From contig NZ_CP080507.1 of NCBI RefSeq assembly GCF_019464535.1, forward strand, positions 4,140,001 to 4,172,000: DNA of 32,000 bases, given 5' to 3'. Below are positions 7,001 through 23,900 of this stretch, piece by piece; the first letter of the stretch is position 1, and each line of letters opens with the position of its first letter. This stretch comes from Horticoccus luteus (GTDB taxonomy: Bacteria; Verrucomicrobiota; Verrucomicrobiia; Opitutales; Opitutaceae). The notes below the pieces were generated by a model that worked only from the letters and a program-made list of their open reading frames with translations, made no database searches and was not told where the DNA came from. The position numbers and the translations under genes are program-made.

Positions 7001-7417
7001 ATCGATGCGCCCATCGGCCAGCAGGCGCACGACGCGAATCGGTTCGCCCGTGCCGTCGTTCGGATACGACACGCCATACGCCGGCCCGGTGACCGCCGCC
7101 ACCTTGCCGTCCGGGAGTGGCACAACCGAAAACACCGCCCGCCCGCTGCCGATGTCAGCCGCGAACGAAGGATCGCGCGAGCCGTCCGCGAGCAGCCGCA
7201 CCACGCCGGATCCGCCGATCGCCGTGCCATTGACGTAGTTAAAATGGCCCACCGCGAAAAGCTGCCCCGCCGGCGTGCCAACGAAGGCCGTGCCTTCCAA
7301 CGTCTGCGCTTCACTCTCGATCCGCGGCGCGAACGTCGCGTCGAGTTCCACGCGCTGCGCGAACACCGGCGCGACCGCGAAAAGTAAACACCCGCCCAGC
7401 AACCATCGCGCATTCAT
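4058..7417 (-). CDS. large secreted repeat protein: DGxxDPxF (delta-60-like) beta-propeller-type repeats + Ig-like domain + duplicated C-terminal module
   Basis: A start at ATG 7417 gives MNARWLLGGCLLFAVAPVFAQ, a signal-peptide-like N-terminus. The track start at 7702 adds 95 implausible residues. More than 12 repeats carry DGS/T-x-DP-x-F (DGSRDPSF, DGRIDPAF, DGTVDPAF, DGTLDPAF, DGSVDETY...). An Ig/I-set-like block follows (SRTIVAGRSVTLQAAL...YQWTLNG...AGDYRLVATT). Two related C-terminal modules start NFSARSWV...IGGFVL...LLRAIGSGL and NVSLRGFAG...VAGFVV...LLIRGAGPAL. Confidence 0.8.
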   Translation of the reverse strand: MNARWLLGGCLLFAVAPVFAQRVELDATFAPRIESEAQTLEGTAFVGTPAGQLFAVGHFNYVNGTAIGGSGVVRLLADGSRDPSFAADIGSGRAVFSVVPLPDGKVAAVTGPAYGVSYPNDGTGEPIRVVRLLADGRIDPAFAAVTFDRTLVKLARQPDGALIAWGEFTTVNGQPRNSLARILTDGTVDPAFATSWANPALSVESLVVDSDGRTVLSGVSYGSDGPATYYFVRLTSTGALDAAFAPAEGRTFRLLAATPDGEVLAGNGDLTKFKADGTRDPAFTPAISNLDNISRVIVLEDGRIAIELGARPTTDALAVNVVYLLRSDGSLERDFRDLPGAERTQHLAAALSDGCVAIVQGALTMVPGVFMEWSYWEVPGMADPKLCVVDLAAGSLTTLPTTLALRSQGNVSRLALDAGGGVRAEGYFTHIDDQPRAGSARFFADGTLDPAFTPEAVVPVFHLPDGRLIGRQTTLGAADAHGVHHRETQLVRLLADGTLDPTFNPPADLDLLSANWLAATADGRVLVAVFTPDSTREENLKLVWLADDGHVDATLPTVFGEFTLGYVVAVDLAQVILPGAGVGNAVQSAVVLPDGRLLVASAARKVNGGEHPFLVRLNADGSVDETYQPDFAALPTNVSSAQPLSDGRALVFGYNVGPYVSTVFRLNPDGSRDVSFDPQSPVGRGQLLADGSWFYNGRRYLADGTLDLNFHPTFDQAPSGAVLDGAGHLWVGGDFTSVNGQPHAGLVRFNLIETPGFTVMPESRTIVAGRSVTLQAALGTSTPATYQWTLNGADLAGATAATLTLTSLTAAQAGDYRLVATTGGVTYTSEAATLTVAPNTTRIVNFSARSWVSPGGAPQIGGFVLRDAAAHPVLLRAIGSGLAYYGVPYSSTLRDPVLRLHDGMTQIGENADGALATRITDLAARLGAFPEPETIMPVFRNTHDAALAPLLSAGTYSAQTFASAGGLDAGAGISLFEFYDAADPANSAPVANVSLRGFAGAEDKVLVAGFVVAGNGPVTLLIRGAGPALASFGVAGALGDPQVTLYRGSTVLAQNDHWSASADASAIATAAQTVGAFSFPDGSDDAALLVTLEPGVYTVQGSGVAGATGEMMVELYVVP

Positions 7418-7948
7418 CCTTCGTGCCGCGTCGACACGCATAACGGCCAGCGGCTCACGCCCTCCAAATCGCGCCGCGATCGCCGCCTGTGGTCCGGGGA
7501 GCGCACGCATCCCGCGTGCTGCTCTCCGCGCCTCGCCGAGAACGGTTCGAATCAGTCGCACGAGGCCGCCCAAACCGAAGCGCGACACGTGTGCGCTCGC
7601 CTGCCTCGTGCCCGCAAGCGACTGCCGCTGCTGGGCCAATTGAATCCATCGTGAAACGAGAGCGGCGACGAGCGGCGCGAGGCAGGAGAAGTGGCGGGAC
7701 ATACGAAGCGTGGTTGAAACGCACCGGCCGGGCGTGGCGAAGAGAATGCTGCCTCACCCGCGGTGCGTCACCTTCTATTACGTGCGTCCGGACGACCTGG
7801 AGTCATCTCTGCGTCGCTGTAACATCGTAAGCCCTGGAATGAGTCGAAGCGTGCACGCCCCACTGCGCGGCCGCCACGGACGCCTGACTCTTCCCATCGC
7901 CAAGAACCACCGCGACACCAACCACGAGCGCCCGCGTCCAGTTTGAGG

Positions 7949-7963: not shown

Positions 7964-8395
7964 TCAGGTTTCCCGTTTTCGACCGGGCTCCCTTTCCGCC
8001 AGCACGCGCTGCAACCGCGCCACCGTTCGCGCCGCGTGCTTCTTGGTCAACGCATGCTCCCAAATCCGCACGACACGCCAGCCGGTCTGCTTTAGGAGCC
8101 GGTTCACCTCCCGGTCCCGCGCCCGGTTATGCAGAATCTTCGCCCGCCAGAACTCCGCGTTCTGCTTCGGCCAAGTCGCATGTTTCGGACACCCATGCCA
8201 GAAACAGCCGTCAACAAAGACCGCCACGCGCTGCGCCGGAAAGACGAAATCGGGCTTGCCGATGATCGGACGATGCCGACGCCAACCCGTCACTTGGTGC
8301 GCCCGGAAGATTGCGATGAGCCGCAACTCCGTACCCCGGTTGCCGCGGCCGCGAATCGCCGCCATGACCGCCGATCGCTGGGCGACGGAAAACAC
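7964..8395 (-). CDS. vsr: very short patch repair (Vsr) DNA mismatch endonuclease
   Basis: The C-terminal 143 aa of track ORF 7964..9235 read FSVAQRSAVMAAIRGRGNRGTELRLIAIFRAH..GKPDFVFPAQRVAVFVDGCFWHGCPKH...NAEFWRAKILHNRARDREVNRLLKQTGWRVVRIWEHAL. These are the Vsr signatures, with the PDFV Asp and the FWHGC His block present. No in-frame ATG exists, so I place the start at GTG 8395..8393 and regard it as uncertain. Confidence 0.8.
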   Translation of the reverse strand: MFSVAQRSAVMAAIRGRGNRGTELRLIAIFRAHQVTGWRRHRPIIGKPDFVFPAQRVAVFVDGCFWHGCPKHATWPKQNAEFWRAKILHNRARDREVNRLLKQTGWRVVRIWEHALTKKHAARTVARLQRVLAEREPGRKRET

Positions 8396-8446
8396 GTCCG
8401 TGCCGGTGGACCTGCATCGTCCCCGGTGGCAAAGCGCGTTTTCGGG

Positions 8447-8499
8447 CTTGCCTGGTCGCCTGGTATTACCAGGGTGTTGCCTTGTATTACCAGGTTGTC
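8447..8499. promoter_or_regulatory. tandem 21-nt repeats carrying 15-nt palindromes (candidate operator) in the vsr / NTase divergent intergenic region
   Basis: Unit A is 8458..8478 GCCTGGTATTACCAGGGTGTT. Unit B is 8479..8499 GCCTTGTATTACCAGGTTGTC (18/21 identical). A partial unit GCCTGGTC lies at 8450..8457. CCTGGTA-T-TACCAGG (8459..8473) is a perfect palindrome, and the unit B copy (8480..8494) has one arm mismatch. The repeat is read directly from the sequence. The operator function is an inference. Confidence 0.5.
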
Positions 8500-8527
8500 C
8501 CGGCGAAGACGTCTCTCCTCTGTTGCG

Positions 8528-9136
8528 ATGAACAAACTTGCTCTTCTCTTTCATTCTGAAATTCGGGCGGAAATGCTCCGCCTCCTGTTTGGCGCGCGCC
8601 AGCGGGAAATGTATCGGGCCGAGCTCATTGGTCACACGCGGTTCGCCCAGCGTTCCGTGGAAGAGGAACTCGAAAAACTCGTCCGCCTCGAGCTGCTCAT
8701 CACCACGAAGGATGGCAACCGCCGCTACTACATCGCCAACCAGGCGCACCCCCTCTATCCTGAGCTGCGGAGCATTGTTCTGAAAACCTCCGGGCTCGTT
8801 GACCTTCTCGCCGAGGTTTTGCCGCCAAAAAAGATCACCGCTGCCTTCGTCTTCGGCTCGATCGCCGCCAAGAGCGAGCGGGCCGACAGCGATGTTGATT
8901 TGATGATCATCGGCGAGATCACCCATCGGACCCTCGCCTCCGCGATGCGGGCGGCGGCCGGGCGCATCGGCCGGGAAATCAACCCCCACTTCTTCACTCC
9001 GGCGGAATTCCGTCGCCGTCTGGCCGCGAAGGATCACTTTCTCGGCGACGTGATGGCGAAATCCAAACTCTTCATTATCGGAGGAGAAAATGAGCTTGGC
9101 GCACTGGTCCGCGGCCGGGTGGCTGCAACCGCATAA
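8528..9136 (+). CDS. winged-HTH + minimal nucleotidyltransferase (MNT-type) fusion protein
   Basis: From ATG 8528 the product reads MNKLALLFHSEIRAEMLRLLFG...YRAELIGHTRFAQRSVEEELEKLVRLELLITTKDGNRRYY, which is ArsR/wHTH-like. It is followed by AAFVFGSIAAKSERADSDVDLMIIGE, the Pol-beta NTase GS...DxD motif. The track ORF start at 8129 is an antisense artefact over vsr. Confidence 0.75.
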   Translation: MNKLALLFHSEIRAEMLRLLFGARQREMYRAELIGHTRFAQRSVEEELEKLVRLELLITTKDGNRRYYIANQAHPLYPELRSIVLKTSGLVDLLAEVLPPKKITAAFVFGSIAAKSERADSDVDLMIIGEITHRTLASAMRAAAGRIGREINPHFFTPAEFRRRLAAKDHFLGDVMAKSKLFIIGGENELGALVRGRVAATA

Positions 9137-9539
9137 GACCAGTCCCGCCGAAGTCCGCGACCTGTGGCAGATCGTCGATCGCGATCTGGCCGACGCCGCG
9201 TCGGGTGGCATCTCGGCCGATTGGCAATACGGCATCGCTTACAACGCCGCGCTGAAGCTCTGCACCATCCTGCTCTACGCCGAAGGTTGGAAACCGGCGA
9301 AAGGCGCGCTCGCCCACTCGCGCACGCTAGGTGCGCTGCCGCACATCCTCGGCGCCACTCGCCAAGGTGATGCCGACTATCTCGAAGGGTGTCGGCAGAA
9401 GCGCAACACCGTCGAATATGACTACGCCGGCGGAGCAACCAAGCAGGACGCCGAGGAGCTGATCGCCTTCGGCCACGAACTACGCGCGGGGGTGCTCGCA
9501 TGGCTTAAAAAGAAGCACCCGGTCTTGATGCCGGAGTAA
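9090..9539 (+). CDS. HEPN-like domain protein, partner of the upstream NTase
   Basis: 149-aa helical protein with HEPN-like helices (WQYGIAYNAALKLCTILLYAEGWK...HSRTLGAL) and CRQKRNTVEYDY where Rx4-6H is expected. GGAGGAG lies just upstream of the ATG. It overlaps the NTase gene by 47 nt, the usual NTase-HEPN pair arrangement. Confidence 0.55.
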   Translation: MSLAHWSAAGWLQPHKTSPAEVRDLWQIVDRDLADAASGGISADWQYGIAYNAALKLCTILLYAEGWKPAKGALAHSRTLGALPHILGATRQGDADYLEGCRQKRNTVEYDYAGGATKQDAEELIAFGHELRAGVLAWLKKKHPVLMPE

Positions 9540-9549
9540 GGATGGACCC

Positions 9550-11586
9550 TTAGCGCTCTGTCGCAGCACTGAACAACGTCACGATCTGCCGCACCTTCTT
9601 CGGCCCGAAGCCGGGCTTCATCTGAAGTTGCTTCCACGTCAGGGCAGCGACCTGCCCGACGATCCACCCGCCCGAATTCGGCGGATAGTCGCGGCCCATC
9701 CGCACCGCCAGGCCCATAATGGTGCGTTGGTCGCTGAGGAGGCTCTGCCGCGCCCGGTCCCACTCGCGTTCGACTGCCTCTAGATCGGAACGCGGCGCCA
9801 CAAACGCGTGCGCGCCCAGCGCTCTTTCCCAAGGCGCATCGAGGGCGATGGGTGTGCTATGGAACTTCTGCCACGTCTCCTCCTTTTTCGCCGCCTCGGT
9901 CGGATTGCCCGGCAGCGCCTTAATGTAAGCGAGTGCCTTCGCCCCGACACTCGTCAGCGCCGCGGCCAGCGTCTCCGGCACGCTCTGCCTTTCCCAGAGC
10001 TGATTCAGGTCAATGCGCCGCCCGGATTTTTCGACCAACCACGCCACGGTGTAGGCCACGGCCTGCGCCCGCAGACTGCCTGAGTCCTTCGGCGCCAGGC
10101 GCAACGCCGCTTTGAATAGAATCATCTTGGCCACAACCTGCTTGAAGTAGTTCACGTCGACGACCGGCTCGCCCTCGTCTTCGTGGCGCTGCGCCAGCTG
10201 GATGAAATTCTTCTCGGCACCACGGCACACGAGATGCGGCAATCCGGCCCAGAGTTGCTCATATTTGGCCAGATCGGTCTTTGTGAACTTCTGGATGGAG
10301 GGATTCTGCTTCTCCCAATCGCGAATCCGCGCCGGCGTCCCTTGGCGCATCTTGTCGTCGAGATAGGAACCGCGCGCCCGCTCGTAATACCAGTGCGTGC
10401 CTCGATCCAACCCGCTGACCGCGGGCGCCCAGACGGTGCGCGACAGTTTCTCCAACTCGAGATGGAAGCGCCCGTTGGCCGAGAAATCCGCCGCGTTCAC
10501 CTTGTTCTGGCTGTTGGCGTATTTCGAGATCAGCGGGACGATGTCGGCGACGCGCTCCGGATTGGTGAGCACGGTGAGCTTCACCTGCACGACCACGTGA
10601 CCGACGTCCGTCTTCTCGCGTTTCAGCGCGTGGAAGATGCTGGCGGTCGTCTGCCCGCCGTTGACGATCTGGAAATCCCGCACGGCCCGCAACCGCACGT
10701 GGCCGTCGCTCTTGGCGTCCACCTCGACCGACGCGGCGGTGCAGCACAGGCCGTTGTTGTAGGCGAGGAATCGGTGAGGCTCGTCTTGCAGCGTTTTTTG
10801 GAGGCCCTTGTTGATCTTCCCCTTCGCTTGGAGAAAGGCCCGCACGTTGCGCTCAAGCAGGCGCTGGCCGTGCTCGCCGTAGATGCGGGCGAGCACCGGG
10901 GCCGGCAGAAACGCGAGAAAGGTCCGGTATTCTCCAGTCGCATCGGCGGTCTCCAGCGCCGGCACCGGACCGCCGTAGGCGTTCACGAAATCCAGCTCGA
11001 TGACCTCACGCTCTCCCACTTGCAGCCGGCTGAGTTTGTCGAGGTCCCACATCACGTAGCGGAGTTCCAAGCCCTCGATCTGCTCCTGTTCGATCTCGAC
11101 CGATTTCACGACGCCGTCGGTGAGGAGGAAAAGCCGCGCCGTCGTCAGTGCCTCGCGGGCTTCGTAAATCTGGCGCGCCGCTTCGAACACCGGAAACGAC
11201 GGCTCCAGCTTTGTGTGCCAGCCATCCAACGCCCGGCGGAGAAAGCCGCGCAGGAGCTTGAACTGTTGCTCGGTGTCGGCGCGGGTAACCAGTGTCGGCG
11301 CATCCTCGTTGAGGTAGAGCGTGACGAAAAGGTCGAGCGTCGCGCCGTCGCCCGACAGGCTCCATGCGCTGAGCTTGGCCGCCGGCGTGCGACCGCGGGC
11401 CTGGTCCTCCCAAGCGCAGAGCGTGCCGTCGCTCGCCTCGTTGTGCTCGATCAGGTGCTCGAGCGCGACCGAGGTGAACGCTTCCGCCTGCAGCGGCGGC
11501 GTCCCGGTCTCGGGCTGACACTTGATGCGCACCTCTTCCTTGAGGTCGGCGGCAAACAATTCGAGGCGGGAGAGGGATTCGGTCAT
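9550..11586 (-). CDS. AIPR (abortive-infection phage resistance) family protein
   Basis: The 678-aa product contains HRFLAYNNGLCCTAASVEV...FQIVNGGQTTASIF...LISKYANSQNKVNAADFSAN, the characteristic AIPR core (NNG..T / IVNGxQT). It is the last gene of the operon, 24 nt after the preceding stop. Confidence 0.8.
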   Translation of the reverse strand: MTESLSRLELFAADLKEEVRIKCQPETGTPPLQAEAFTSVALEHLIEHNEASDGTLCAWEDQARGRTPAAKLSAWSLSGDGATLDLFVTLYLNEDAPTLVTRADTEQQFKLLRGFLRRALDGWHTKLEPSFPVFEAARQIYEAREALTTARLFLLTDGVVKSVEIEQEQIEGLELRYVMWDLDKLSRLQVGEREVIELDFVNAYGGPVPALETADATGEYRTFLAFLPAPVLARIYGEHGQRLLERNVRAFLQAKGKINKGLQKTLQDEPHRFLAYNNGLCCTAASVEVDAKSDGHVRLRAVRDFQIVNGGQTTASIFHALKREKTDVGHVVVQVKLTVLTNPERVADIVPLISKYANSQNKVNAADFSANGRFHLELEKLSRTVWAPAVSGLDRGTHWYYERARGSYLDDKMRQGTPARIRDWEKQNPSIQKFTKTDLAKYEQLWAGLPHLVCRGAEKNFIQLAQRHEDEGEPVVDVNYFKQVVAKMILFKAALRLAPKDSGSLRAQAVAYTVAWLVEKSGRRIDLNQLWERQSVPETLAAALTSVGAKALAYIKALPGNPTEAAKKEETWQKFHSTPIALDAPWERALGAHAFVAPRSDLEAVEREWDRARQSLLSDQRTIMGLAVRMGRDYPPNSGGWIVGQVAALTWKQLQMKPGFGPKKVRQIVTLFSAATER

Positions 11587-11610
11587 GGCAAGGTGAAAAA
11601 GGCCCCGAAA

Positions 11611-12630
11611 TCAGGCGGGGTGGACCAAGGCCGCCGCGAGTGCGTCGGGTGGAATGGCGAAGTCGGTGCACGCGGCGAGACTCAGCGCATAGCCAACCTC
11701 GCCGACGCCGTTCGGGAGGCCCGTCTCTACTATCCGTGGAAATCCCGGTGCCACCCGGTAGTCCTGCGTCTGCCGCACGGCGTAGCCGACGGAGCCGTAA
11801 CGGGGGGAGTGTTGATCGAGGTAGCCGGCGGCGAGCAGCGCATCCTCAAAATTTTCCCGTGCCTCCGGCCAGGCCGACAGCGACGCCCTCACTGCCGCCA
11901 CTTCGGCGGGTAGGGTAGCGGCTCCGCCTTCGTGCGCCTCCAGGGCCAGCACATGCAGGAAAAGCGCGGGCGCCAGCGTGTCGTCGAGCTGGCGCTCGCT
12001 CGCGATGCGCACGCTCTGCGGCTGCTTGGCCAGCGTGGTCTTCACCTCGATCCAAGCGCTGGGAAACTGAAAATCCTGGTGCGCGCCTTCCGGGCCTTTC
12101 CAGCCCGTCACCGCGGCGCCGCCGACAAGCGGGAGCAGCCGGGTGTGGAGAAAATGCAGCTCTCCCCACAGCCCGCGCTGCGCGGCGGGGTCGAGTCCAT
12201 CGCGCGCGCTGGCCAGGAAGCGCTGCCAGCGCCGGAGCTGACCGAGCAAAACGATGACCGCGGCGCTGGCGGTTGGCGCCTCTTCAACCCGCCAAGCAAG
12301 GTCGACGGCCAGAGCGTCGAAGACATCCGCGAACCGCGGCTCAGTCAGGGTCGCGCCGATATGAGGAACCCCGTCTATCACGACACAGGCGGGTGCGAGT
12401 GCGGAGAACTCCGGCCATTGGCGGCGTGCCGGTTGCTGTGCACCATCAAGAGGCAACAGGACAGCGCGCCGTCCCGTGCCGGCTTCACGGGCGGCAAACA
12501 GACTCCGGCCCGGCGTCGGGCGGCAGCGAATCAGCCACCAGCGCGAAGCGTCCGCTCCAGCGCTTGCCTCCAATTCCTTCCAAAGAGCGGAGAATCCGAT
12601 GGTCAGAGGCTCACTCATCGTAGGTATCAT
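11611..12630 (-). CDS. PD-(D/E)XK motif protein (DUF4420-like putative nuclease)
   Basis: The 339-aa product contains RGLWGELHFL...GWKGPEGAHQDFQFPSAWIEVKTT, i.e. D...E-x-K in the arrangement typical of the PD-(D/E)XK motif protein family found next to Z1/AIPR genes. The alternative start at ATG 12618 would give an 8-nt overlap with Z1 instead of 20 nt. Confidence 0.7.
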   Translation of the reverse strand: MIPTMSEPLTIGFSALWKELEASAGADASRWWLIRCRPTPGRSLFAAREAGTGRRAVLLPLDGAQQPARRQWPEFSALAPACVVIDGVPHIGATLTEPRFADVFDALAVDLAWRVEEAPTASAAVIVLLGQLRRWQRFLASARDGLDPAAQRGLWGELHFLHTRLLPLVGGAAVTGWKGPEGAHQDFQFPSAWIEVKTTLAKQPQSVRIASERQLDDTLAPALFLHVLALEAHEGGAATLPAEVAAVRASLSAWPEARENFEDALLAAGYLDQHSPRYGSVGYAVRQTQDYRVAPGFPRIVETGLPNGVGEVGYALSLAACTDFAIPPDALAAALVHPA

Positions 12631-15535
12631 CGTCCCTGATCATGGCGTCCCAGACGCGGTTCACCCGATACTCAACGCCGAGCACGGTTTCGCTCGCCGG
12701 AAAACTGAGAACAACGCCACTGACGGGATCACCATCGCGATTCAATCCCGTCGTGCGCGCGGGTCTTCCCTCGCCTTCGCTAACCTCCATAGGTGGCACC
12801 AGCGGATAGATCAAAAGCAGCCCGCGGCTCCGCGGTCGCAACACGCGGAGCACGCGGCCATAGGGCCGGGTCGTCTGTCCCTTATCGGGCGATCGCAACT
12901 TCGGCGGGTTGGTTGCCTGCCACCGCAACGTGAGCGCCAGCGCAACATCCCACGCATCCCGGCCGATGCAACCGGCGAGCCAATCGATGTCGTCGGCAAG
13001 GTCGGGTTTGCCCGAAATCTCAGCGAGCCACGCAGCGTCGAACAGCACGCCCCGAAAATCGAGAGCCTCATCGGCAGGGTTTTGGATGTTTGCTTTGCGG
13101 GCGAGCCAAGTGGTCTCGGTCTGGTCTTCGGCCGAGCGGGAAACAAGCCCGGTTTCCTGCCCGGCGATGGTCCGGCGATCTCTGGCCTCGGCGCTGCCCG
13201 AGCTCACCACGACGACCGTCCAGAGGGTGAGTTCTTTGTCGGGCTTGTCGGCTTGCTTCCGGATGAACTGAACCAGTTCGGCGCCCCCGGCGCGGGCCGC
13301 TTCGGGCGGGAAGCGCAGCTTGGAAAGAAACGCAGCGACCTCGGCGACTGGCACGTCTTTCCAGATGCGAGAGCTGGACCCCTGTTGCGTCGCAGGAGCG
13401 CCCAACCCCGTGAGAAATTGCTCGACGGCGCCGAGATTGGACGCGGTGACCGTGCCATCCTTGAAGAACTGCGTAGTCTGCACGAGCACACCGGCCCACG
13501 AGAGTTCCTGGACTCTGCTGTGGGACATCTTGTTCAGTGCCGTGACGATCATTCCCGCCGGATGGGTGCGGACGCGCAGGCCATATGTCTTGGGCGTCTG
13601 ACCGGTCGCTACCATGTGGTCGAACTCTCGGCGCAGTTCGGCTTCGGCGAGGGCGATGTGGCGATACCAGCGCATTAACTCCGAGGTGGTGAATAGCCGG
13701 CAGAGATCGACATATCCGGGCCGGTATCCGAACCACCGCCCCATTTGGAGTAGAGTGTCATACATTTTCGAGGCGCGCAGGAAGTAACTCACCGAGAGAC
13801 CCTCCAAGGTCAGGCCCCGCGATAACTTGTCGCCGCCGATCGCGATCACACTGCGGCCTTGCGCCTCGTGCGCCTTGTAGTCGAGAGGCGTCTGAGAGGA
13901 CGAATTGATGACCGCTACGTCGATCTTGGCCGCAGCCGCGTGTAGCTCTACATCCAACGCTTCCCATGTCACAGTCGGTTGAGCTTCGGACCCAAACTCC
14001 TCCGAGACCGGAACAAACTCTTCCGCCCATAGCTGCTTCAGTTCATCACGAAGAGTTGGCTGCCGTGCTCCGTCTCCGTCACGAAGCCTTCGCTGCAAGC
14101 CAATCAATTCATCCCTCACCAAACGGGCCGTGTGATTCTGCACTGGCTGGAAACGTGTGACGTGAACCAGCATCGAATTGTGCTTGCTCGATTGATTGCG
14201 CACGCGGCGCGCGGCGCAAATCAGGATGAAACAACGGATCGCTCGCGTGAGCGACTTGGGCGGATCTTTCGGGACGTGGTCGATCTTGTGTTTCGGCGGG
14301 AAGGCCGCCGCGTAGTCCGTCAAGCTCCTGACAATATTGAGACTCGGCTGGGCGGGAATCTCTCGGTCGGGATCGCCCGCCAAGCCGAATACCCGGGTCG
14401 GTCCCACGTAGTTCGAAGGCGCTTCAACGTTGATGATGAAGCTGCGCGGAAACAGATCGGCGCCATGCTTAGGAGACTCAGCGTCAGGATTGATGAATAT
14501 GTTCGCGAACGGCGTAGCTGTGTAGCCTACGTAGGCCGACTTCTCGAAGGCATCGAGTAGCGCGCGAATTCGCCCGTTAATAACGGACACATCCAGCTCC
14601 GGGTCTGCGCCGTCTTTGCTCTTGGTGTTGATGGATGCGTTGTCTGCTTCGTCGTCGATCAGCAGCAACGGCACATTGTGGATGACCGGTTTCTCGTTCT
14701 CGGAGGGTTGAGTTCCAGCGACGGCGGTCACCCATTCGTGCAGATTCTTGAGAACATGGCCGTTCTTTTTGACGACGAGCACGACGGGGTCGCTTCCAAG
14801 CATCACGTTTTGCTGAGAGGCGACTTTCTTGCTGAAATCGCCGTCTTCCGCACTGCTGGTGAGTGAGTGAATAGGATAGCGCTCACCAGCGTTTTTTCCG
14901 ACTCCGATCCAAAGACTGTTGGCACTCAGTTTTCGACTGTTGCGCGTATCGAAACCGGTGACACCCTCGTCGATTCGCAACTGGGTCTGGCTGCGCAAAT
15001 TGCTATGAATGCCAGCGAGAATGACGATTAGCTTATAGCCTGCGTCGATTGCTTTGCATATGAGCCCCGTATAATTGGCCGTTTTCCCTGACTGCACGCT
15101 TCCGACAACCATTCCCCGACGGTCCCACTGATCAGGCCGCGCGGGGTCTTCCAGGCGTTCTAGAACCTTGTCGGTGAGGCTGTGGAGACTGTTCACCACC
15201 GCGGGAGGAAGGCCGACTTCGCGCGCGAGATAGCGTTCGTAACGCGACCAGAAACGCCAGTCGATCTGGGCACGCCTATCCGGGAGCCACACTTTGTGTG
15301 CGTCGGGATCGTCGTCATCCAGCACCCCCACCGTTCCGGCTCTGACTGCGAACATATGGGCGAGTTCTGCCGTGAGTGTCTCCAAGTCCGGTGCCGGACC
15401 ACCAAAGAGAGTGGCTGCCTGTATAGCCTTCTGAGCGGTTTCCCGAATCTTCTCCAAAGTCCTGTCGGACTCTTTGCCGAGGATATCGGCGGCGAGATTG
15501 CGGGCGTTAGTGTGGTTTTGCGCAGCGTCAGGCAT
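12611..15535 (-). CDS. Z1 domain-containing P-loop NTPase (helicase-like)
   Basis: The 974-aa product has Walker A GSVQSGKTANYTGLICKAIDAGYKLIVILAGIHSNLRSQTQLR and Walker B/DEAD-like LLLIDDEADNAS. The Z1 signature is IAIGGDKLSRGLTLEGLSVSYFLRASKMYDTLLQMGRWFGYRPGYVDLCRLF. Confidence 0.85.
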   Translation of the reverse strand: MPDAAQNHTNARNLAADILGKESDRTLEKIRETAQKAIQAATLFGGPAPDLETLTAELAHMFAVRAGTVGVLDDDDPDAHKVWLPDRRAQIDWRFWSRYERYLAREVGLPPAVVNSLHSLTDKVLERLEDPARPDQWDRRGMVVGSVQSGKTANYTGLICKAIDAGYKLIVILAGIHSNLRSQTQLRIDEGVTGFDTRNSRKLSANSLWIGVGKNAGERYPIHSLTSSAEDGDFSKKVASQQNVMLGSDPVVLVVKKNGHVLKNLHEWVTAVAGTQPSENEKPVIHNVPLLLIDDEADNASINTKSKDGADPELDVSVINGRIRALLDAFEKSAYVGYTATPFANIFINPDAESPKHGADLFPRSFIINVEAPSNYVGPTRVFGLAGDPDREIPAQPSLNIVRSLTDYAAAFPPKHKIDHVPKDPPKSLTRAIRCFILICAARRVRNQSSKHNSMLVHVTRFQPVQNHTARLVRDELIGLQRRLRDGDGARQPTLRDELKQLWAEEFVPVSEEFGSEAQPTVTWEALDVELHAAAAKIDVAVINSSSQTPLDYKAHEAQGRSVIAIGGDKLSRGLTLEGLSVSYFLRASKMYDTLLQMGRWFGYRPGYVDLCRLFTTSELMRWYRHIALAEAELRREFDHMVATGQTPKTYGLRVRTHPAGMIVTALNKMSHSRVQELSWAGVLVQTTQFFKDGTVTASNLGAVEQFLTGLGAPATQQGSSSRIWKDVPVAEVAAFLSKLRFPPEAARAGGAELVQFIRKQADKPDKELTLWTVVVVSSGSAEARDRRTIAGQETGLVSRSAEDQTETTWLARKANIQNPADEALDFRGVLFDAAWLAEISGKPDLADDIDWLAGCIGRDAWDVALALTLRWQATNPPKLRSPDKGQTTRPYGRVLRVLRPRSRGLLLIYPLVPPMEVSEGEGRPARTTGLNRDGDPVSGVVLSFPASETVLGVEYRVNRVWDAMIRDDDTYDE

Positions 15536-17024
15536 CGGGGTGCTCCGGAGTTATTGTCGCGAGCAGCTCCGGGAACTGGTCGAAGGGTGGATGACTTGAA
15601 AGGCGTTGAATCGCTTCGTCGTGACCGCAGCCGATCGAGCGAAACGTCCGATAAAGTTCATCGAGCACTTCTTTCACTTGGGCCGCTGGCGTTCCCTCGA
15701 ACGGCTCAGGTTGTGAGCCGGGCTCTTCTGCGGCCGTGATGCCAATATGCTGGAGCGGGATCGACTCTTGAACCAAGGCGATCAACGCGCGCATGGCAGG
15801 CTTGTCGGATGTGCTCTCCAGCACCCGGCGCACCAGCGGATGCTCGTCATTGATCCGGTAAAATAAACGGTCGTGCTTCGCGAGGTGAAGCCATAGACGG
15901 TTGGTCGGACTGGAGTCAGCCGGTGCGGTCAACCGGGCGCCGCGATGGGTATAAACGTTTTTCGCCTCGGCACGCGTGCGCTCGGCGATGCGTTTCAAAT
16001 CGTCGCGCAGCGCGGCGGGCGGCGTGGCGCGAGACTTGGTTACATTGATCTGCCACTCGTGGTCGAGCGTGTTGGGTAGGTCGATCGCGATGCGCGCGAG
16101 CTTGAGATGCTCGTCCTTCGTCCAGCCAAAGCCGAGCCAGTCGCCGGCCACAAGGAGCCGGTCGCGGCGATAAACGTAGAATCCTTGGTGGGCGAGCCAG
16201 CCACGCGGGCCGGCTCCCGCTTCGTGCTCGATCTTGGAAAGTTTCGAGATGTGCGGCAGCACGTAGGCGCGCACCGGCACGCGCTCGCCGCCCAGCCGCA
16301 GCGGGTCGACCGGCAGGCGGTGGGTGGCGGGGTGATTTTCGAGAAACGGGTCCCATGGTTCGACCGCGCGGTCGTTGACGAAGAGCCGCACGGCGGAGGA
16401 CCCCGTCATAAGTCGGTGGAACACGAGACCGAGGTGGCTTCGCACGCCGTCGATGCGCTCGAGGAAGCGCTGTTGGTGGCGGTCGCTCTGCGGGTCTTGG
16501 CCGCGGGTCAGGCGGTCAAGCTGCTGCCAGAGCACCGTCGTGCCGTTCGGTTGATCGGCGAGTCGGGTAAAGCGCGGCTCCGCGGCGACATCGGCCGCGC
16601 GAAGGAGGCGCCAGTCGTCCGTGGCGGCGATGACGCCAAGATCCCAGCAGCGCGTCTCTACCGGGCTGGAGGCACGTCGGCTGCGCACGGTTAGGCGGCG
16701 GCATTGGGAGAGCGAGGCGGTCTTGAGGCCGAGGCCGAAGCGGCCGAGGTCATGCGGCGCACGTGCGGCGAGCGGACCGCGGGTGCCGAGTCGCATCGCC
16801 TCCACCAACTCGGCGGCGGACATACCGTCGCCATCGTCAGTCACGCTAACCGTAGAAGCATCGCCCGCCCACTCGAAGTGCAACCAGACGTGGCGTGCAT
16901 GGGCCGCGATACTGTTGTCCACCAAATCAGCCAGCGCGGTCGGTAGGTCGTAGCCGAAGGCGCGGAGACTTTCGACGATGGCCGACGCGTGCGGCGGGGT
17001 GCGGTCGAAGGCGTCCTCGGGCAT
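15528..17024 (-). CDS. GHKL-superfamily (MORC/MutL-like, HATPase_c_3-type) ATPase
   Basis: The 498-aa product has N-box ALADLVDNSIAAHA, G1 box VTDDGDGMS and G2 box GRFGLGLKTASLS. Its stop overlaps the Z1 start by 8 nt, and it starts 16 nt after the methyltransferase stop. Confidence 0.8.
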   Translation of the reverse strand: MPEDAFDRTPPHASAIVESLRAFGYDLPTALADLVDNSIAAHARHVWLHFEWAGDASTVSVTDDGDGMSAAELVEAMRLGTRGPLAARAPHDLGRFGLGLKTASLSQCRRLTVRSRRASSPVETRCWDLGVIAATDDWRLLRAADVAAEPRFTRLADQPNGTTVLWQQLDRLTRGQDPQSDRHQQRFLERIDGVRSHLGLVFHRLMTGSSAVRLFVNDRAVEPWDPFLENHPATHRLPVDPLRLGGERVPVRAYVLPHISKLSKIEHEAGAGPRGWLAHQGFYVYRRDRLLVAGDWLGFGWTKDEHLKLARIAIDLPNTLDHEWQINVTKSRATPPAALRDDLKRIAERTRAEAKNVYTHRGARLTAPADSSPTNRLWLHLAKHDRLFYRINDEHPLVRRVLESTSDKPAMRALIALVQESIPLQHIGITAAEEPGSQPEPFEGTPAAQVKEVLDELYRTFRSIGCGHDEAIQRLSSHPPFDQFPELLATITPEHPDA

Positions 17025-17040
17025 CGGCAGGGAAACAGAG

Positions 17041-18744
17041 TTACCGTCCCGGTGGGACTGGAGTGGGCATGGGAGCGGTCGCCGGCGCCCGGGCAGCGGT
17101 GCATCGTCGGGCGTCGAGCCCCGCGCGCTGCGCCTCGATGCAGTAGAAGGCTTCGTCGGAAAACTCCTCGCCCAGATAACGCCGCCACGCCTCAGTGCCG
17201 AAACCTTCGAGCATCACGGGCCAGCCGCTGCGCGTGTAGCGCCGGCCGAGGCGGTCGATGGCTTCACCGGAGAGCGGTGCGTCGTGCTCCTCGTCGCCGT
17301 GTTCGAGTGCGTTTTCCGGGTGCAACTCGGGAAAAAGCCAGAGCAGCGCATGCCAGCCGCGCAAAAACTCCGCAGCGGTCATCGCCCGCAGCGCCTTGCG
17401 GTCGGCCCGCGTCAACGGGTCGAGCCAAGTGATCGCTTCGGTCCGGTTGCTCGGCAGAGCAAAGGCAGGTGCGACGGCTAAGGAATGGTGCCCACGGGTG
17501 GGTCTTGCGGTGGGCGCGGCGATCTCTGGCGAGAGGAACGAGCGGATCGCCCGGCCGACGCCTTCGGCGATGAGTGGCGGAACGGCGTTGCCGATGACGC
17601 GGAAGGCGTGCGTGCGAGCCTCGGGAAAGACGAACCAGTCGGGGAAACTCTGCACGCGGGCGGCCTCGCGCGGGGTGAGCGAGCGGTTCTGCACCGGATG
17701 GATGAACATCAGGCCGTCCTTGCTCAGGTGCGCCACGATCGTGGAACACGGCTTGTTTCGGTGCTGGCGGGTGTAGCGGTCTTTGAAAGTCGTCTTGTCG
17801 TAGGGAAAATCGAACTCGACGCCGCGTCGCATGGCGGCGGCGGAGCTTTCGCCCTCGGCGAGTTTCAGAAAGTCGCCGAGATCGCGGGCGCTGTGCGGGC
17901 GGGCGACGTGGTTGTAGATCGCCGGGGAGGCACCGACTTCGGCGACGTGCGAGAGGTAGCGTTTCCGCCAGCGGTCGCGGGTGCCGCCGAGAAAGTGAAC
18001 CTGACGACGCTTCAGATCGTAGGGCGTTTCGTGTTCGCCGGCGCCGGCGGCGAGCACCGGCAGGTCGAGGATCGCGTCGCCCAGCATCGTCGCCAGCAGC
18101 GCGCGCGGCGCGGGCGCGAGCTCGGCGGGAAAATAACCGGGGAGATCGGCGCGGACGCCGACGATGAGCTGCCGGCGGCGTTTCTGCGGCACGCCGAGCG
18201 CGGTGCCGCGCTCGATCTGCGGATGGACACGGTAACCGGGCCGGCCGGAAGTTTTTCCGAGGCTGCGGGCCTCGTATTGGACGGCGGTGAAGTAGCGGCC
18301 GCCGGCGGCGGAGCGAAGACCGAGGACGTTTTCGATTACGAATACCTTCGGCTGGAAGTGCTCTACGTGGTCGAGAAAGTTGCGGAAAAGATGGCGGCGG
18401 GGGTCGTCCTTGAGACGCTTGTCGCCGTGATTGGAGCCGTCACGCTGTCGCGCGGTGCTGAAGCCTTGGCAGGGTGGACCGCCGACGATCACATCGACTT
18501 CCTTGGAGCCGATCATGGCTGCTAACGTGTCGGGTCGGAGCTGAGTGAGATCGGCATGCAACGCGAACGCCACCGGAGGCAAGCTGGTCGGAGACTTAGC
18601 CTGCAAATTTGTCCGCAGCGTGGCGATCGCCTGTTCGTTGAAATCGATAGCCGCGAGGCAATCGAAACCGGCACGCAACATCCCCAGCGTAAAGCCGCCG
18701 CAGCCGCTGAACAGGTCAATGAACGTGAGCGAAGCGCGGCTCAT
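17041..18744 (-). CDS. dcm: DNA (cytosine-5)-methyltransferase with ~160-aa C-terminal extension
   Basis: Motif I is FIDLFSGCGGFTLG, motif IV GGPPCQGFS, motif VI FVIENVLGL. QSFPDWFVF and motif X GNAVPPLIAEGV are also present. I use the start ATG 18744 (MSRASL...), which overlaps the upstream stop as ATGA. The track start 18762 is 6 codons further upstream. Target specificity cannot be read from the sequence. Confidence 0.9.
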   Translation of the reverse strand: MSRASLTFIDLFSGCGGFTLGMLRAGFDCLAAIDFNEQAIATLRTNLQAKSPTSLPPVAFALHADLTQLRPDTLAAMIGSKEVDVIVGGPPCQGFSTARQRDGSNHGDKRLKDDPRRHLFRNFLDHVEHFQPKVFVIENVLGLRSAAGGRYFTAVQYEARSLGKTSGRPGYRVHPQIERGTALGVPQKRRRQLIVGVRADLPGYFPAELAPAPRALLATMLGDAILDLPVLAAGAGEHETPYDLKRRQVHFLGGTRDRWRKRYLSHVAEVGASPAIYNHVARPHSARDLGDFLKLAEGESSAAAMRRGVEFDFPYDKTTFKDRYTRQHRNKPCSTIVAHLSKDGLMFIHPVQNRSLTPREAARVQSFPDWFVFPEARTHAFRVIGNAVPPLIAEGVGRAIRSFLSPEIAAPTARPTRGHHSLAVAPAFALPSNRTEAITWLDPLTRADRKALRAMTAAEFLRGWHALLWLFPELHPENALEHGDEEHDAPLSGEAIDRLGRRYTRSGWPVMLEGFGTEAWRRYLGEEFSDEAFYCIEAQRAGLDARRCTAARAPATAPMPTPVPPGR

Positions 18745-18971
18745 CGGTCGATCCCTTTGCATAGTTCTGACGCGGCCACGGCCAGTGCTCGTGCTAGCTT
18801 GGCTATACTGAGAATCGTCAGATTGCGCTCACCGCGCTCGATCCCGCTGATGTAGGTCTGGTCGAGACCGGCTTTCTCAGCCAATTCCTCCTGCGTCCAT
18901 TCTTTCGCCTCGCGGAGTTTCCGTACATTGGAACCGAAACGCTCCAATTCCCGCGCCTTGGTTTTCGCCAT
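18741..18971 (-). CDS. XRE-family helix-turn-helix protein, controller (C) protein-like
   Basis: The 76-aa product contains FGSNVRKLREAKEWTQEELAEKAGLDQTYISGIERGERNLTILSIAKLARAL, a canonical HTH_3/XRE domain. It is the first gene of the operon and is translationally coupled (ATGA) to the methyltransferase gene, as in C-protein-regulated R-M systems. Confidence 0.8.
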   Translation of the reverse strand: MAKTKARELERFGSNVRKLREAKEWTQEELAEKAGLDQTYISGIERGERNLTILSIAKLARALAVAASELCKGIDR

Positions 18972-19022
18972 CGAGCTATATTAACGGATTATGACCTAGA
19001 AGTTTACAGACGATGATACCTA
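18972..19022 (-). promoter_or_regulatory. AT-rich candidate promoter/operator upstream of the C gene
   Basis: The minus strand reads ...AATAGGTATCATCGTCTGTAAACTTCTAGGTCATAATCCGTTAATATAGCTCG-ATG. A TAATAT box ends 6 nt before the ATG, which would give a near-leaderless mRNA. Two direct copies of TAGGT(A)TCAT lie about 24 nt apart. I see no convincing -35 box. Confidence 0.3.
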
Positions 19023-19364: not shown

Positions 19365-20849
19365 TTACGGCAGATCCGTGTAGCCCATCAGGTAGCGGTC
19401 GCACTCGCGGGCGGCGCCGCGGCCTTCGTTGATCGCCCACACCACCAAGCTCTGTCCGCGCCGGCAGTCGCCCGCTGCAAACACGCCTTTAATGCTCGTC
19501 GTATATTTTTCGTGCTCGGCTTTGATGTTGGAGCGCGGGTCGGTCTCGACGCCGATTTCCTTCAACAACGCCTGCTCCGGCCCGAGAAAGCCCATCGCGA
19601 GCAGCACGAGTTGCGCGGGGCGCGTCTGCTCCGTGCCGGGCTGCTCTTTCGGGATGAACTGCCCTTTCTCGTTTTTCTCCCACTTGATTTCAACCGTCAC
19701 GAGCTCCTTCACGTGGCCCTGCTCGTCGCCGACGAATTTCTTCACCGTAGTCAGATACACGCGCGGATCGGCGCCGAATTTCGCCGCCGCCTCTTCCTGG
19801 CCGTAATCCATTTTGTAAACCTTCGGCCACTCCGGCCACGGGTTATCCGCCGCGCGCTCCGTCGGCGGCTTCGGGAGAATTTCGATCTGCACGAGGCTCT
19901 TGCAGCCGTGCCGCATCGAGGTGCCCACGCAATCCGTGCCCGTATCGCCGCCGCCGATGACGACGACGTCTTTTTTCTGCGCGCTGATGAGCGCGTGCTC
20001 CGCGCCGCCGTCGAGGACGGCTTTGGTGTTCGCCCCGAGAAACTCCATCGCGAAGTACACGCCTTTGAGCTGGCGGCCTTCGATCGGAAGGTCGCGCGGC
20101 TGCGTGGCGCCGGTGCAGATGACCGTCGCGTCGTATTCCTTGAGAAAGATCTGCGGCTCGACGTTGTCGCCGACGTTGGCGTTGCAGATGAATTTAATGC
20201 CTTCCTGCTCCATCTGTTTGATGCGGCGCAGGACCACTTCCTTTTTGTCGAGCTTCATGTTCGGGATGCCATACATCAGCAACCCGCCCGGCCGGTCGGC
20301 GCGTTCGAACACCGTGACGCTGTGGCCGGCTTTGTTGAGCTGCGCGGCGCAGGAGAGACCCGCCGGGCCGGAACCGATCACGGCGACTTTTTTGCCCGTG
20401 CGCACCGCCGGCGGCTCGGGCACGACCCAGCCTTCCTCCCACCCGCGATCGATGATCGCCGCCTCGATGTTCTTGATCGTGACGGGCGGGTTGTTGAGGC
20501 CGAGCACACAGGAACCTTCGCACGGGGCGGGACAGACGCGGCCGGTGAAATCCGGGAAGTTGTTCGTCTTGTGCAACCGGTCGAGCGCCTCGTGCCACAG
20601 GCCGCGATAAACGAGGTCGTTCCACTCGGGGATGAGGTTGTTGATGGGGCAGCCACTGGCCATGCCGCTGATCAACTTGCCGGTGTGACAGAACGGGATG
20701 CCGCAATCCATGCAGCGCGCGCCCTGCTGCCGGAGTTTCTTTTCCTCCATGTGGTGGTGAAACTCTTTCCAGTCCTTCACGCGCTCGGTCGGCGTGCGGT
20801 CGACGGGAAGCTCGCGGAGATATTCGATGAAGCCGGTTGGTTTGCCCAT
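19365..20849 (-). CDS. gltD: glutamate synthase (NADPH) small subunit
   Basis: The 494-aa product reads [13 protein letters not shown]...[16 protein letters not shown]...[15 protein letters not shown]...[18 protein letters not shown], with the GltD Fe-S and FAD/NAD motifs. It lies directly downstream of gltB. Confidence 0.95.
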
Positions 20850-20967
20850 GGAGAAGAAAGTTAAACTAGCGAGTGGCGGGTGATGGGTGACGAGGAGGAA
20901 GGCCGGTGAACGTGCGGTGGTGGGGAAATGCCCGCGGCTCGCGACTCTCTCCTCGTTACAGTGGTTT

Positions 20968-23900
20968 TTAATTTCCCCCGACGCGTGACGTGTCGCGGGC
21001 GTTTTCCTCGAAGGCCGCCATGATGGCTTCGTCGCCGGTGAGGCCTTGGTCCTGCGCGCGCTCGATGCAGGCGAGCATGCGCTTGTAATCCTTCGGCAGC
21101 ACTTTGACGAATTTCGGAGCGAACTCCGCCCAGCGATCGAGCACGAGGCGCGCGCGGTCGCTCTGCGTGTAATCGAAGTGTCTTTGAATCATCGCGCGGA
21201 CGGCGGAGAGCTCCTTCGCGGTCTCGAGCTTTTCGACTTCGACCATCTGCGTGTTGACGCGGGCGGCGAAGTCGCCGGTCTCGTCGAGCACGTAGCCGAT
21301 GCCGCCGGACATGCCGGCGCCAAAGTTGCGTCCGGCGCGACCGAGCACGACGACGTAGCCGCCGGTCATGTATTCGCAGCCGTTGTCGCCAATGGCCTCG
21401 ACGACGGCCGTGACGCCGGAGTTGCGCACCGCGAAGCGTTCGCCCGCCATGCCGCGGATGTAAACCTCACCGGCGGTCGCGCCGTAGAGCGCCACGTTGC
21501 CGATGATCATGTTTTCGCCCGCCTTGAACGGCGCCTTCGCCGAGGGATAGATGATGAGTTTTCCGCCCGAGAGGCCCTTGCCGAAGTAGTCGTTCGCATC
21601 GCCCTCGATGGAGAGCGTCATACCGCGCGTCACAAACGCGCCGAAGCTCTGGCCGGCGGAGCCGGTGAACTTCAACTTGATCGTGTCCTCCGGCAGACCC
21701 TGGGCGCCGTGGCGCTTCGTGACTTCGCCCGACGTGATCGTGCCCACGACGCGGTTGACGTTGCGAATCGGCAGCTCGGCGATGACTTTCTCGCCGCGCT
21801 CGATGGCCGGTGCGCACAGCTCGAGCAGAGTCGTGACATCGAGCGAGCGCTCGATGCCGTGATCCTGCTTCGTCGAGCAATACCGGCCGACCTCGGCCCC
21901 CACGTCGGGTTGATAAAGGATGTTCGAGAAATCGAGGCCCTTTGCCTTCCAGTGATCGACGGCCTTTTTCGACTCCAGCCGGTCGGTGCGACCGACCATT
22001 TCCTCAATGGTGCGGAAGCCGAGCTGCGCCATGATTTCGCGGAGATCTTCTGCGATGAAACGCATGAAGTTCACCACGTGCTCCGGCTGGCCGGTGAACT
22101 TGGCCCGCAACTGCGGATCCTGCGTCGCGACGCCGGTCGGACAGGTGTTGAGATGGCAGACACGCATCATGATGCAGCCGCTGGCGACGAGCGGACCGGT
22201 CGCAAAACCAAACTCCTCCGCGCCGAGCAACGCCGCGATCGCCACGTCACGCCCGGTCTTGAGCTGGCCGTCGGTCTCGACCGCGATGCGCGAACGCAGA
22301 TTGTTAAGCACGAGCGTCTGGTGCGTCTCGGCGAGGCCGAGCTCCCACGGCAGACCCGCGTGTTGCAGGGACGTTTGCGGCGAGGCCCCGGTGCCACCGT
22401 CGTAGCCGGAGACGAGCACCACGTCGGCGTGGGCTTTCGCGACGCCCGCGGCGATCGTACCCACGCCCACTTCCGAGACGAGTTTCACGCTGATGCGCGC
22501 GTCCTTGTTGCCGTTCTTGAGGTCGTGAATCAACTCGGCGAGATCCTCGATCGAGTAGATGTCGTGGTGCGGCGGCGGCGAGATGAGACCCACGCCCGCG
22601 GTGGTGCCGCGGGTCTTCGCGACCCACGGATAAACCTTCGAACCGGGCAACTGCCCGCCTTCGCCCGGCTTCGCGCCCTGCGCCATCTTGATCTGCAACT
22701 CACGCGCCTTCACCAGATATTCGCTGGTGACGCCGAAGCGGCCCGATGCGACCTGCTTGATCGCGGAATTCTTCGAATCGCCGAGTTCGTTGGTCCACGT
22801 GTAACGCGCGGGATCCTCGCCGCCTTCGCCGGTGTTGGATTTGCCGCCGATGCGGTTCATCGCGATCGCGAGCGTCTCGTGCGCCTCCTGCGAAATGGAG
22901 CCGTAGGACATCGCGCCGGTTTTGAAACGCTTCATGATCGCTTCGACCGGCTCGACCTCCTCGAGCGGCACGGGCGTGCTGTCATCCTTGAAGTGGAGCA
23001 ATGAACGCAGTGTGCACAACGCGCGCGACTGGTCGTTGATCAGCTTCGCGTAGGCCTGGTAGGTCTTTTTGTTGTTCGTGCGCACCGCCTTTTGCAGCGC
23101 ATGCACGGACTCGGGCGTGAACAAATGCGCCTCGCCGTTGGCGCGCCATTGGTAGAGGCCGCCGGCGGGCAGCACATGGCCGTCGACCGGCCGCTCCGGA
23201 TAAGCCGCCCGGTGGCGGAGCAACACTTCCTGCGCGATCACATCGAGGCCGATGCCGCCGATGCGTGAAGGTGTCCACGTGAAGTAGTGGTCGATCACGT
23301 CCTGCCGCAGGCCGAGCGCTTCGAAAACTTGCGCGCCGCGATACGACTGGATGGCGGAAATGCCCATCTTGGACATGACTTTGATCACGCCCTTGGTGGC
23401 CGCCTTCACGAAATTCTGGCAGGCCTTCTTGTGATCGATGCCGGTCAGCAATCCCTCGCGAATCATGTCGTCCATCGTCTCGAACGCCACGTAAGGATTG
23501 ATCGCCGAGGCGCCGTAACCGATGAGCAGGGCGAAGTGGTGCACCTCGCGCGCTTCGCCGGTTTCGAGCACAATCGACACCCGTGTGCGCAAGCCTTCCC
23601 GGATGAGGAAATGGTGCAGGCCGCCGATCGCGAGCAGCGCGGGAATCGGGGCAAAGTCCTTCGTCACCCCGCGATCGCTGAGCACGAGCACATTCATCTC
23701 GTCCTCCTCGATCATGCGACGCGCCATGATCGAGAGTTCTTCCATCGACTTCGCGAGGCCCTTCTCGCCGCGCGACACGCGGAACAGCGCGGACAGCACG
23801 CCCACGCGCAAGCCCGGGAGGTTGGTGCGGCGGATTTTCGCGAACTCCTCGTTCGTCAAGATCGGCCACTTCAACTCCACCCGGCGGCACGCGGTGGGTT

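Follow-up and report, generated by a model that had tools for sequence, protein, structure and literature searches.

The mzaABCDE anti-phage system reportedly stems from the 2020 screen by Gao and colleagues. Miller et al. (2022) call it a validated defence system, in which MzaA is sigma-factor-like and no methylase is listed among the five genes (PMC9523054). A related gene neighbourhood was described by Iyer, Abhiman and Aravind (2008) as a 'third type' of prokaryotic MORC/paraMORC restriction-modification (R-M) operon. It comprises a GHKL protein with an S5 domain, a superfamily II helicase with a C-terminal DThhQXuRhFG motif, an adjacent E-D-ExK protein of the restriction endonuclease (RE) fold and AIPR, frequently together with cytosine methylases and Vsr (PMC2292703). 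This work was purely computational; it predicted an R-M role from such neighbourhoods and proposed DNA looping between recognition and cleavage sites (PMC2292703). Furthermore, Miller et al. put forward a 'type II-A/II-B' putative system, a prediction based on gene-context embeddings that comes with neither experiment nor mechanism; its proteins share about 20% identity with MzaB-E and are called by neither PADLOC nor DefenseFinder (PMC9523054). The link of a methylase with the core genes had been noted in both studies (PMC2292703, PMC9523054). Here, we analyze a six-gene operon on the chromosome of Horticoccus luteus, contained in a stretch of 32,000 nucleotides (contig NZ_CP080507.1, positions 4,140,001 to 4,172,000; hereafter the window), which an earlier note on the bare sequence had proposed to be a methylation-guarded defence system. 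We consider it moderately likely that the locus is an Mza-family, ATP-dependent and R-M-like defence operon guarded by 5-methylcytosine (m5C), and its relatives suggest that the linked C5-methylase is obligatory but interchangeable across the clade.

All six open reading frames (ORFs) are present on the minus strand (Table 1) and, as the earlier note had described, are separated by overlaps or gaps of 24 nt or less. The stop codon of the first gene, encoding a small controller (C-protein), overlaps the start of the methylase gene at 18744 in a 4-nt ATGA. The methylase and GHKL genes are 16 nt apart, the GHKL and Z1 genes overlap by 8 nt, the Z1 and DUF4420 genes by 20 nt, and a gap of 24 nt precedes the AIPR gene. 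The family assigned to each of the six proteins was verified by searches with Pfam, NCBIfam and PADLOC models, and the catalytic motifs, previously judged intact, were recovered with a conservation of 0.9-1.0, computed over 78-85 homologous loci. The six ORFs are real genes, since these motifs are present and nearly invariant across the homologous loci. The methylase (567 aa from 18744, or 573 aa from an alternative in-frame ATG at 18762) carries the PPCQ, ENV, QxRxR and GNAVP motifs, and its relatives in the PDB include M.HaeIII, M.HhaI and DNMT1. The GHKL protein shows an N-box (D33/D36/N37), a G1 box (DxGxG) and a G2 box (GRFGxGxK). Within the Z1 protein, whose fold matches superfamily 2 (SF2) helicases, the helicase motif D593-T-L-L-Q-M-G-R-W-F-G603 is invariant across the homologous loci. 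Residues E157, D186 and E195-x-K197 of the DUF4420 protein are conserved at 0.99, and the NNG and VNGGQT motifs are found in the AIPR protein.

The combination of GHKL ATPase, superfamily II helicase motif, cytosine methylase, Vsr and AIPR is exactly the neighbourhood of the third type (PMC2292703), to which the note had pointed. In this comparison, the E-D-ExK residues of the RE fold correspond to E157, D186, E195 and K197, and the GHKL likeness is drawn from the ATP-binding motifs and from MORC3 and MORC4 as the nearest solved chains; a C-protein, in contrast, is not described in that work. The second parallel named in the note, an mzaABCDE cassette, also found its counterpart: NCBIfam holds 'MZA anti-phage system associated' models and PADLOC has Mza models too, and both sets are matched by the four effectors, with E-values of 1e-16 to 1e-179 in PADLOC and 5.7e-44 to 4.8e-220 in NCBIfam. 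Homologues of MzaB, MzaC, MzaD and MzaE thus lie here in the same order as in Mza. These matches set the proteins apart from those of the 'type II' system of Miller et al., whose architecture the operon otherwise matches.

The Mza-type identity holds for these four homologues but not in the strict sense. Bit scores against the NCBIfam equivalog cut-offs were 470/850 for MzaB, 733/1500 for MzaC, 151/420 for MzaD and 375/1050 for MzaE. No PADLOC match to MzaA was obtained for the helix-turn-helix (HTH) protein, the four effectors or the four neighbours scanned, nor for the methylase among the best 25 of its 62 PADLOC matches. Because the effectors fall below the equivalog cut-offs and no MzaA was found, the locus is best described not as Mza in the strict sense but as a diverged relative that is linked to a methylase. 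It further differs from Mza in the C5-methylase that is obligatory in its clade and in the Vsr that is usually present there, neither of which is listed among the five mza genes by Miller et al. We also sought plasmid genes annotated as canonical 'MzaC', around which a linked methylase could be looked for, and found none. A C5-methylase, an SF2 helicase and a nuclease are likewise combined in DISARM class 2 (DrmA/B/C/E and the C5-methylase DrmMII), and our methylase matches the PADLOC DrmMII model at 2.3e-77; in contrast to DISARM, the methylase alone matches a Drm model, and DrmA, DrmB and DrmC/DrmE are missing. This widespread kind of gene cluster has therefore been predicted earlier and a related one reported as validated, so that the locus, one of thousands of homologous loci, is an ordinary family member and adds no new kind. 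As an example it is compact and complete and has a controller of its own; the value of the analysis lies in the family-wide behavior of the methylase rather than in this particular locus.

To place the operon among its relatives, profile searches of six-frame ORFs were applied to 80 loci from other species, covering many phyla and archaea. The four-gene core is collinear, and all four effector genes were found in 71 of the 80 loci. Methylase and Vsr were counted in those 49 loci whose core is flanked by 4 kb or more on each side, and a C5-methylase was sought within 9 kb: it was present in every one of the 49, and Vsr in 32. The methylase link is therefore the rule for this clade, and the view that methylase and Vsr form an R-M layer added at this locus does not hold. 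The arrangement is less uniform. In 19 loci, the methylase gene immediately precedes the core in the same orientation, the arrangement seen in the window. In the others it is more distant on the upstream side or lies downstream, and it is often encoded on the other strand; about a third of the methylases are located downstream of the effector genes, mostly in opposite orientation.

These counts bear on two alternatives. First, the four effectors might act independently of methylation as a sensor or abortive infection (Abi) system, which responds to a phage cue by killing the cell or degrading DNA in the manner of other multi-gene defence systems, with Dcm and Vsr as a separate co-travelling module. 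AIPR is historically an Abi family, the validated mzaABCDE is described without a methylase among its five genes (PMC9523054), the methylase is variable in position and orientation, and its evolution is uncoupled from that of the effectors (see below). However, a C5-methylase accompanies all 49 loci, in the window the methylase gene belongs to the operon, ending 16 nt before the GHKL gene and sharing its controller, and the putative HEPN motif Rx4-6H of AIPR_N is not conserved. We therefore judge this alternative to be improbable. Second, a MutL-like GHKL ATPase, a helicase, a nuclease and Vsr could form a dedicated DNA-repair module, a self-sufficient pathway of very-short-patch or mismatch repair compensating for the mutations that the linked Dcm brings about. 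Iyer et al. do draw a parallel to MutL, UvrD and MutH/Vsr and allow for an occasional recruitment to repair (PMC2292703), and Vsr is found in 32 of the 49 loci. Yet a third of the loci lack Vsr, AIPR has no repair precedent, the distribution over phyla and archaea is patchy, the loci lie beside other defence genes (e.g. toxin-antitoxin modules, AbiE, GmrSD and PDC-M05), and its homologue Mza is regarded as a validated defence against phage (PMC9523054), all of which makes a repair function very improbable.

The effectors evolve together, with Spearman coefficients against the Z1 core of 0.77 for GHKL, 0.66 for AIPR and 0.57 for DUF4420, whereas the methylase is only loosely coupled to it (0.30). 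In pairs such as L083/L087, the Z1 cores are 86% identical and the methylases 9-19%, and in such methylase-swap pairs no effector region diverges in step. The methylase thus appears obligatory but interchangeable across the clade, which argues against a classical, hard-wired matched endonuclease. Such an enzyme, with MzaD as the endonuclease matched to the methylase, is the model of Iyer et al. (PMC2292703), and MzaD has the E-D-ExK catalytic set. In a partial-Mantel analysis, DUF4420 and AIPR covary weakly with the target-recognition region of the methylase (partial r of 0.19-0.28), and MzaD most strongly of the effector regions (partial r of 0.26-0.28, permutation p about 0.003). However, MzaD remains 68-94% identical across pairs whose methylase target-recognition regions are 9-60% identical, and no hypervariable segment resembling a target-recognition domain stands out in any effector. 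We therefore regard a matched MzaD as quite unlikely.

Since methylases were swapped between near-identical effector sets without a change in any effector region, the effectors are predicted to lack a matched sequence specificity of their own. We favor two ways in which this could work, namely that m5C is read generically as a veto, or that the resident C5-methylase serves as the recognition subunit, and we prefer the former. The second would resemble the methylase-guided restriction of type I, type III or BREX systems, with the C5-methylase as target-recognition subunit of the effector complex; a methylase swap would then shift the specificities of modification and restriction together. This would account both for swaps without change in the effectors and for the exclusive association with C5-methylases. 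The C-terminal tail of the methylase (~160 aa, residues about 405-567, window 17041-17530 on the minus strand) has no Pfam match, and a conserved portion of ~118 aa is shared by ten loci, in each of which the end of the methylase gene meets the start of the GHKL gene. This extension is restricted to methylases directly upstream of the GHKL gene, that of the window included, and is a possible docking domain. On the other hand, most methylases of the family lack it, methylases merely 9-20% identical would all need to dock on the same effectors, about a third are encoded downstream and mostly on the opposite strand, and no methylase is listed for the five mza genes (PMC9523054). Taken together, we hold guidance by the methylase to be rather unlikely.

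In an m5C-guarded operon of this kind, the methylase would write m5C on host DNA as a self mark, a role supported by comparative genomics, and Vsr would repair the T:G mismatches arising from m5C deamination. The C-protein would delay effector expression after transfer and autoregulate the operon. In the most explicit form of the generic veto, which we put forward tentatively and at a low probability, the effector is plug-and-play: a MORC-like clamp and an SF2 motor would scan DNA, and any m5C would veto the E-D-ExK nuclease. Such an effector without own specificity would explain the acceptance of unrelated C5-methylases and the pairing with a C5-methylase in every locus examined, as well as how Mza could function without a methylase of its own in an E. 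coli host that is dcm+. If this is true, the eukaryotic coupling between MORC ATPases and DNA methylation would have a precedent in bacteria.

Several points speak against an m5C-guarded, R-M-like operon. The validated mzaABCDE has no listed methylase and a sigma-factor-like MzaA (PMC9523054), so that at least one relative may work without a methylase of its own. The effector scores reach about half of the NCBIfam equivalog cut-offs or less, and MzaA found no PADLOC match in the proteins scanned here. No m5C-reading domain was identified, and the fold of the AIPR model matched nothing significantly, MspJI being the only weak match. The weak covariation of DUF4420 and AIPR with the methylase target-recognition region leaves room for a sequence-reading role of MzaD, and the swapped methylases could in principle share their specificity. 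Finally, neither this locus nor any other methylase-linked member of the family was the subject of an experiment in the papers that our searches returned.

The AlphaFold2 model of AIPR (pLDDT 80.8) gave no match to the PDB at E<0.001 in Foldseek, and the weak lead to MspJI had a probability of 0.9 and an E-value of 0.4 over about 200 columns. Asn, Gln, Arg and Lys abound in the most conserved motifs of AIPR, several of which lie in low-confidence loops of the model; judging from this composition, they may serve nucleic-acid binding rather than metal-dependent catalysis. AIPR_N has been reported as a HEPN RNase (Makarova et al. 2012). The candidate motif, R118-x5-H124, is not conserved, and this activity is unsupported for the present clade. 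The resemblance of VNGGQT to DGQQR raised the idea that the AIPR core is related to ParB/DUF262 (GmrSD_N). This was also unsupported: hhalign against two GmrSD_N sequences from neighbouring loci, a very shallow profile, gave a probability of 0.06, and relaxed Pfam scans of AIPR returned nothing in favor of a DUF262 relationship.

Table 1 Features of the operon and its surroundings, in window coordinates
Feature	Position	Strand	Evidence or remark
1214-aa protein with DUF5122 beta-propeller repeats and Ig-like domain	4058-7702	-	Other flank of the island
vsr (very-short-patch T:G mismatch endonuclease)	7964..8395	-	Pfam Vsr; PADLOC Vsr 9.7e-17; probable GTG start
PDC-M05-like two-gene cassette	8528..9539	+	PADLOC PDC-M05A 8.5e-57, PDC-M05B 1.7e-37; Pfam Polbeta 3e-7
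HTH and nucleotidyltransferase gene of the cassette	8528-9136	+	
149-aa partner gene of the cassette	9090-9539	+	
Terminator-like hairpin and T-run	9518..9535	-	15 nt past the AIPR stop
AIPR protein (AIPR_N and AIPR core), MzaE homologue	9550..11586	-	AIPR 2.5e-89; AIPR_N 1.1e-34; PADLOC MzaE 1.2e-84; NCBIfam MzaE 7.1e-112
DUF4420 PD-(D/E)XK (E-D-ExK) nuclease, MzaD homologue	11611..12630	-	DUF4420 2.7e-68; PADLOC MzaD 1.7e-16; NCBIfam MzaD 5.7e-44
Z1 P-loop protein/SF2 helicase, MzaC homologue	12611..15535	-	PADLOC 4.2e-179; NCBIfam 4.8e-220
GHKL (MORC-like/paraMORC) ATPase, MzaB homologue	15528..17024	-	HATPase_c_3 2.2e-27; PADLOC MzaB 2.7e-115; NCBIfam MzaB 5.5e-141
Dcm-type C5-cytosine DNA methyltransferase	17041..18744	-	Pfam DNA_methylase 2.4e-53 (aa 13-406); NCBIfam dcm 1.2e-44
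C-protein, 76-aa Xre/HTH_3 controller, first gene of the operon	18741..18971	-	Pfam HTH_3 6e-17; PADLOC Control_protein 1.3e-19
Putative promoter/operator	18972..19017	-	31-nt block ATCATCGTCTGTAAACTTCTAGGTCATAATC at 18987-19017, then TAATAT -10-like hexamer at 18978-18983
gltBD	19365-25635		Neighbour on one side of the cluster

Small controllers of this kind are known from C-protein-controlled type II R-M systems such as PvuII and Esp1396I. The operon resembles these in that a small HTH controller comes first and overlaps the next gene, and in that a -10 element and a conserved, operator-like block are found next to the start codon. It differs in what follows, since the C-protein couples to the methylase and then to a four-protein, ATP-dependent effector instead of a single endonuclease. 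The translational coupling of C-protein and Dcm-type methylase that had been proposed was borne out by the ATGA stop/start overlap, and the C-protein gene and this overlap recur in the related genome L004. A general recurrence of HTH and Dcm with the four-gene core, in contrast, held only for the methylase: a C-protein like that of the window was detected only in L004, L008, L028 and L037, with a weak match in L040. The controller is therefore a minority and unusual feature among the loci of the clade.

Upstream of the C-protein gene, the 31-nt block (Table 1) is common to the window and L004, and its flanks differ between the two. The TAATAT hexamer ends 6 nt ahead of the C-protein ATG, a proximity that suggests a leaderless transcript. 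Block and hexamer together would fit autoregulation by the C-protein from such a transcript, though they are suggestive only. A generic promoter scan returned nothing at these positions, and neither a clear dyad nor a canonical GACT/AGTC C-box is evident upstream of the C gene in the window. At the equivalent upstream position, L008 and L037 carry C-box-like repeats of the form GACT...AGTC.

The operon is flanked by gltBD on one side, an adjacency shared with L004. Synteny with L004 is kept only at this side; at the flank matching the DUF5122 side of the window, L004 carries nadB, nadC and nadA. No tRNA was found in the whole window and no mobility-gene family was matched among the flanking ORFs scanned, so that no mobility mechanism can be assigned to the island.

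The Vsr noted earlier in the same island is real, but its gene spans ~143 codons rather than the full 423-codon ORF (7964-9235, minus strand), of which only these last codons represent vsr; the long ORF is an artefact of the high G+C content. Alignment with L004 shows that the ancestral ATG is missing from the vsr of the window, whose start is probably a GTG located four codons further downstream. In L004, vsr follows immediately after AIPR as the seventh gene. The two genes are ~1.1 kb apart in the window, and this distance is filled by the PDC-M05-like cassette, which L004 lacks. PDC-M05 is a candidate system in PADLOC, and we consider the cassette to be an inserted passenger outside the Mza-like system. 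The terminator-like hairpin after AIPR is suggestive by its position alone, as the total count of terminator-like sites in the region is not above chance. From the insertion, the lost ATG and the hairpin, we conclude that vsr was ancestrally the seventh and last gene of the operon, was displaced by the insertion and is now uncoupled from the operon.

Related loci show further neighbours. In Verrucomicrobia bacterium IMCC26134 (L009), a homologous PDC-M05 pair (17193-18365) lies beside the locus and adjoins a second vsr fragment (16934-17176). A GmrSD-type (DUF262 and DUF1524) modification-dependent restriction gene is found immediately downstream of AIPR in L039 (16424-18592), and L042 carries a GmrSD_N gene, cut by the locus end (16689-17405), downstream of AIPR and vsr. 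In a relative from a groundwater metagenome (L005), vsr is directly followed by a gene of the dCMP/cytidine deaminase family (dCMP_cyt_deam_1, MafB19-deam; 16493-16927), a noteworthy neighbour for an m5C system.

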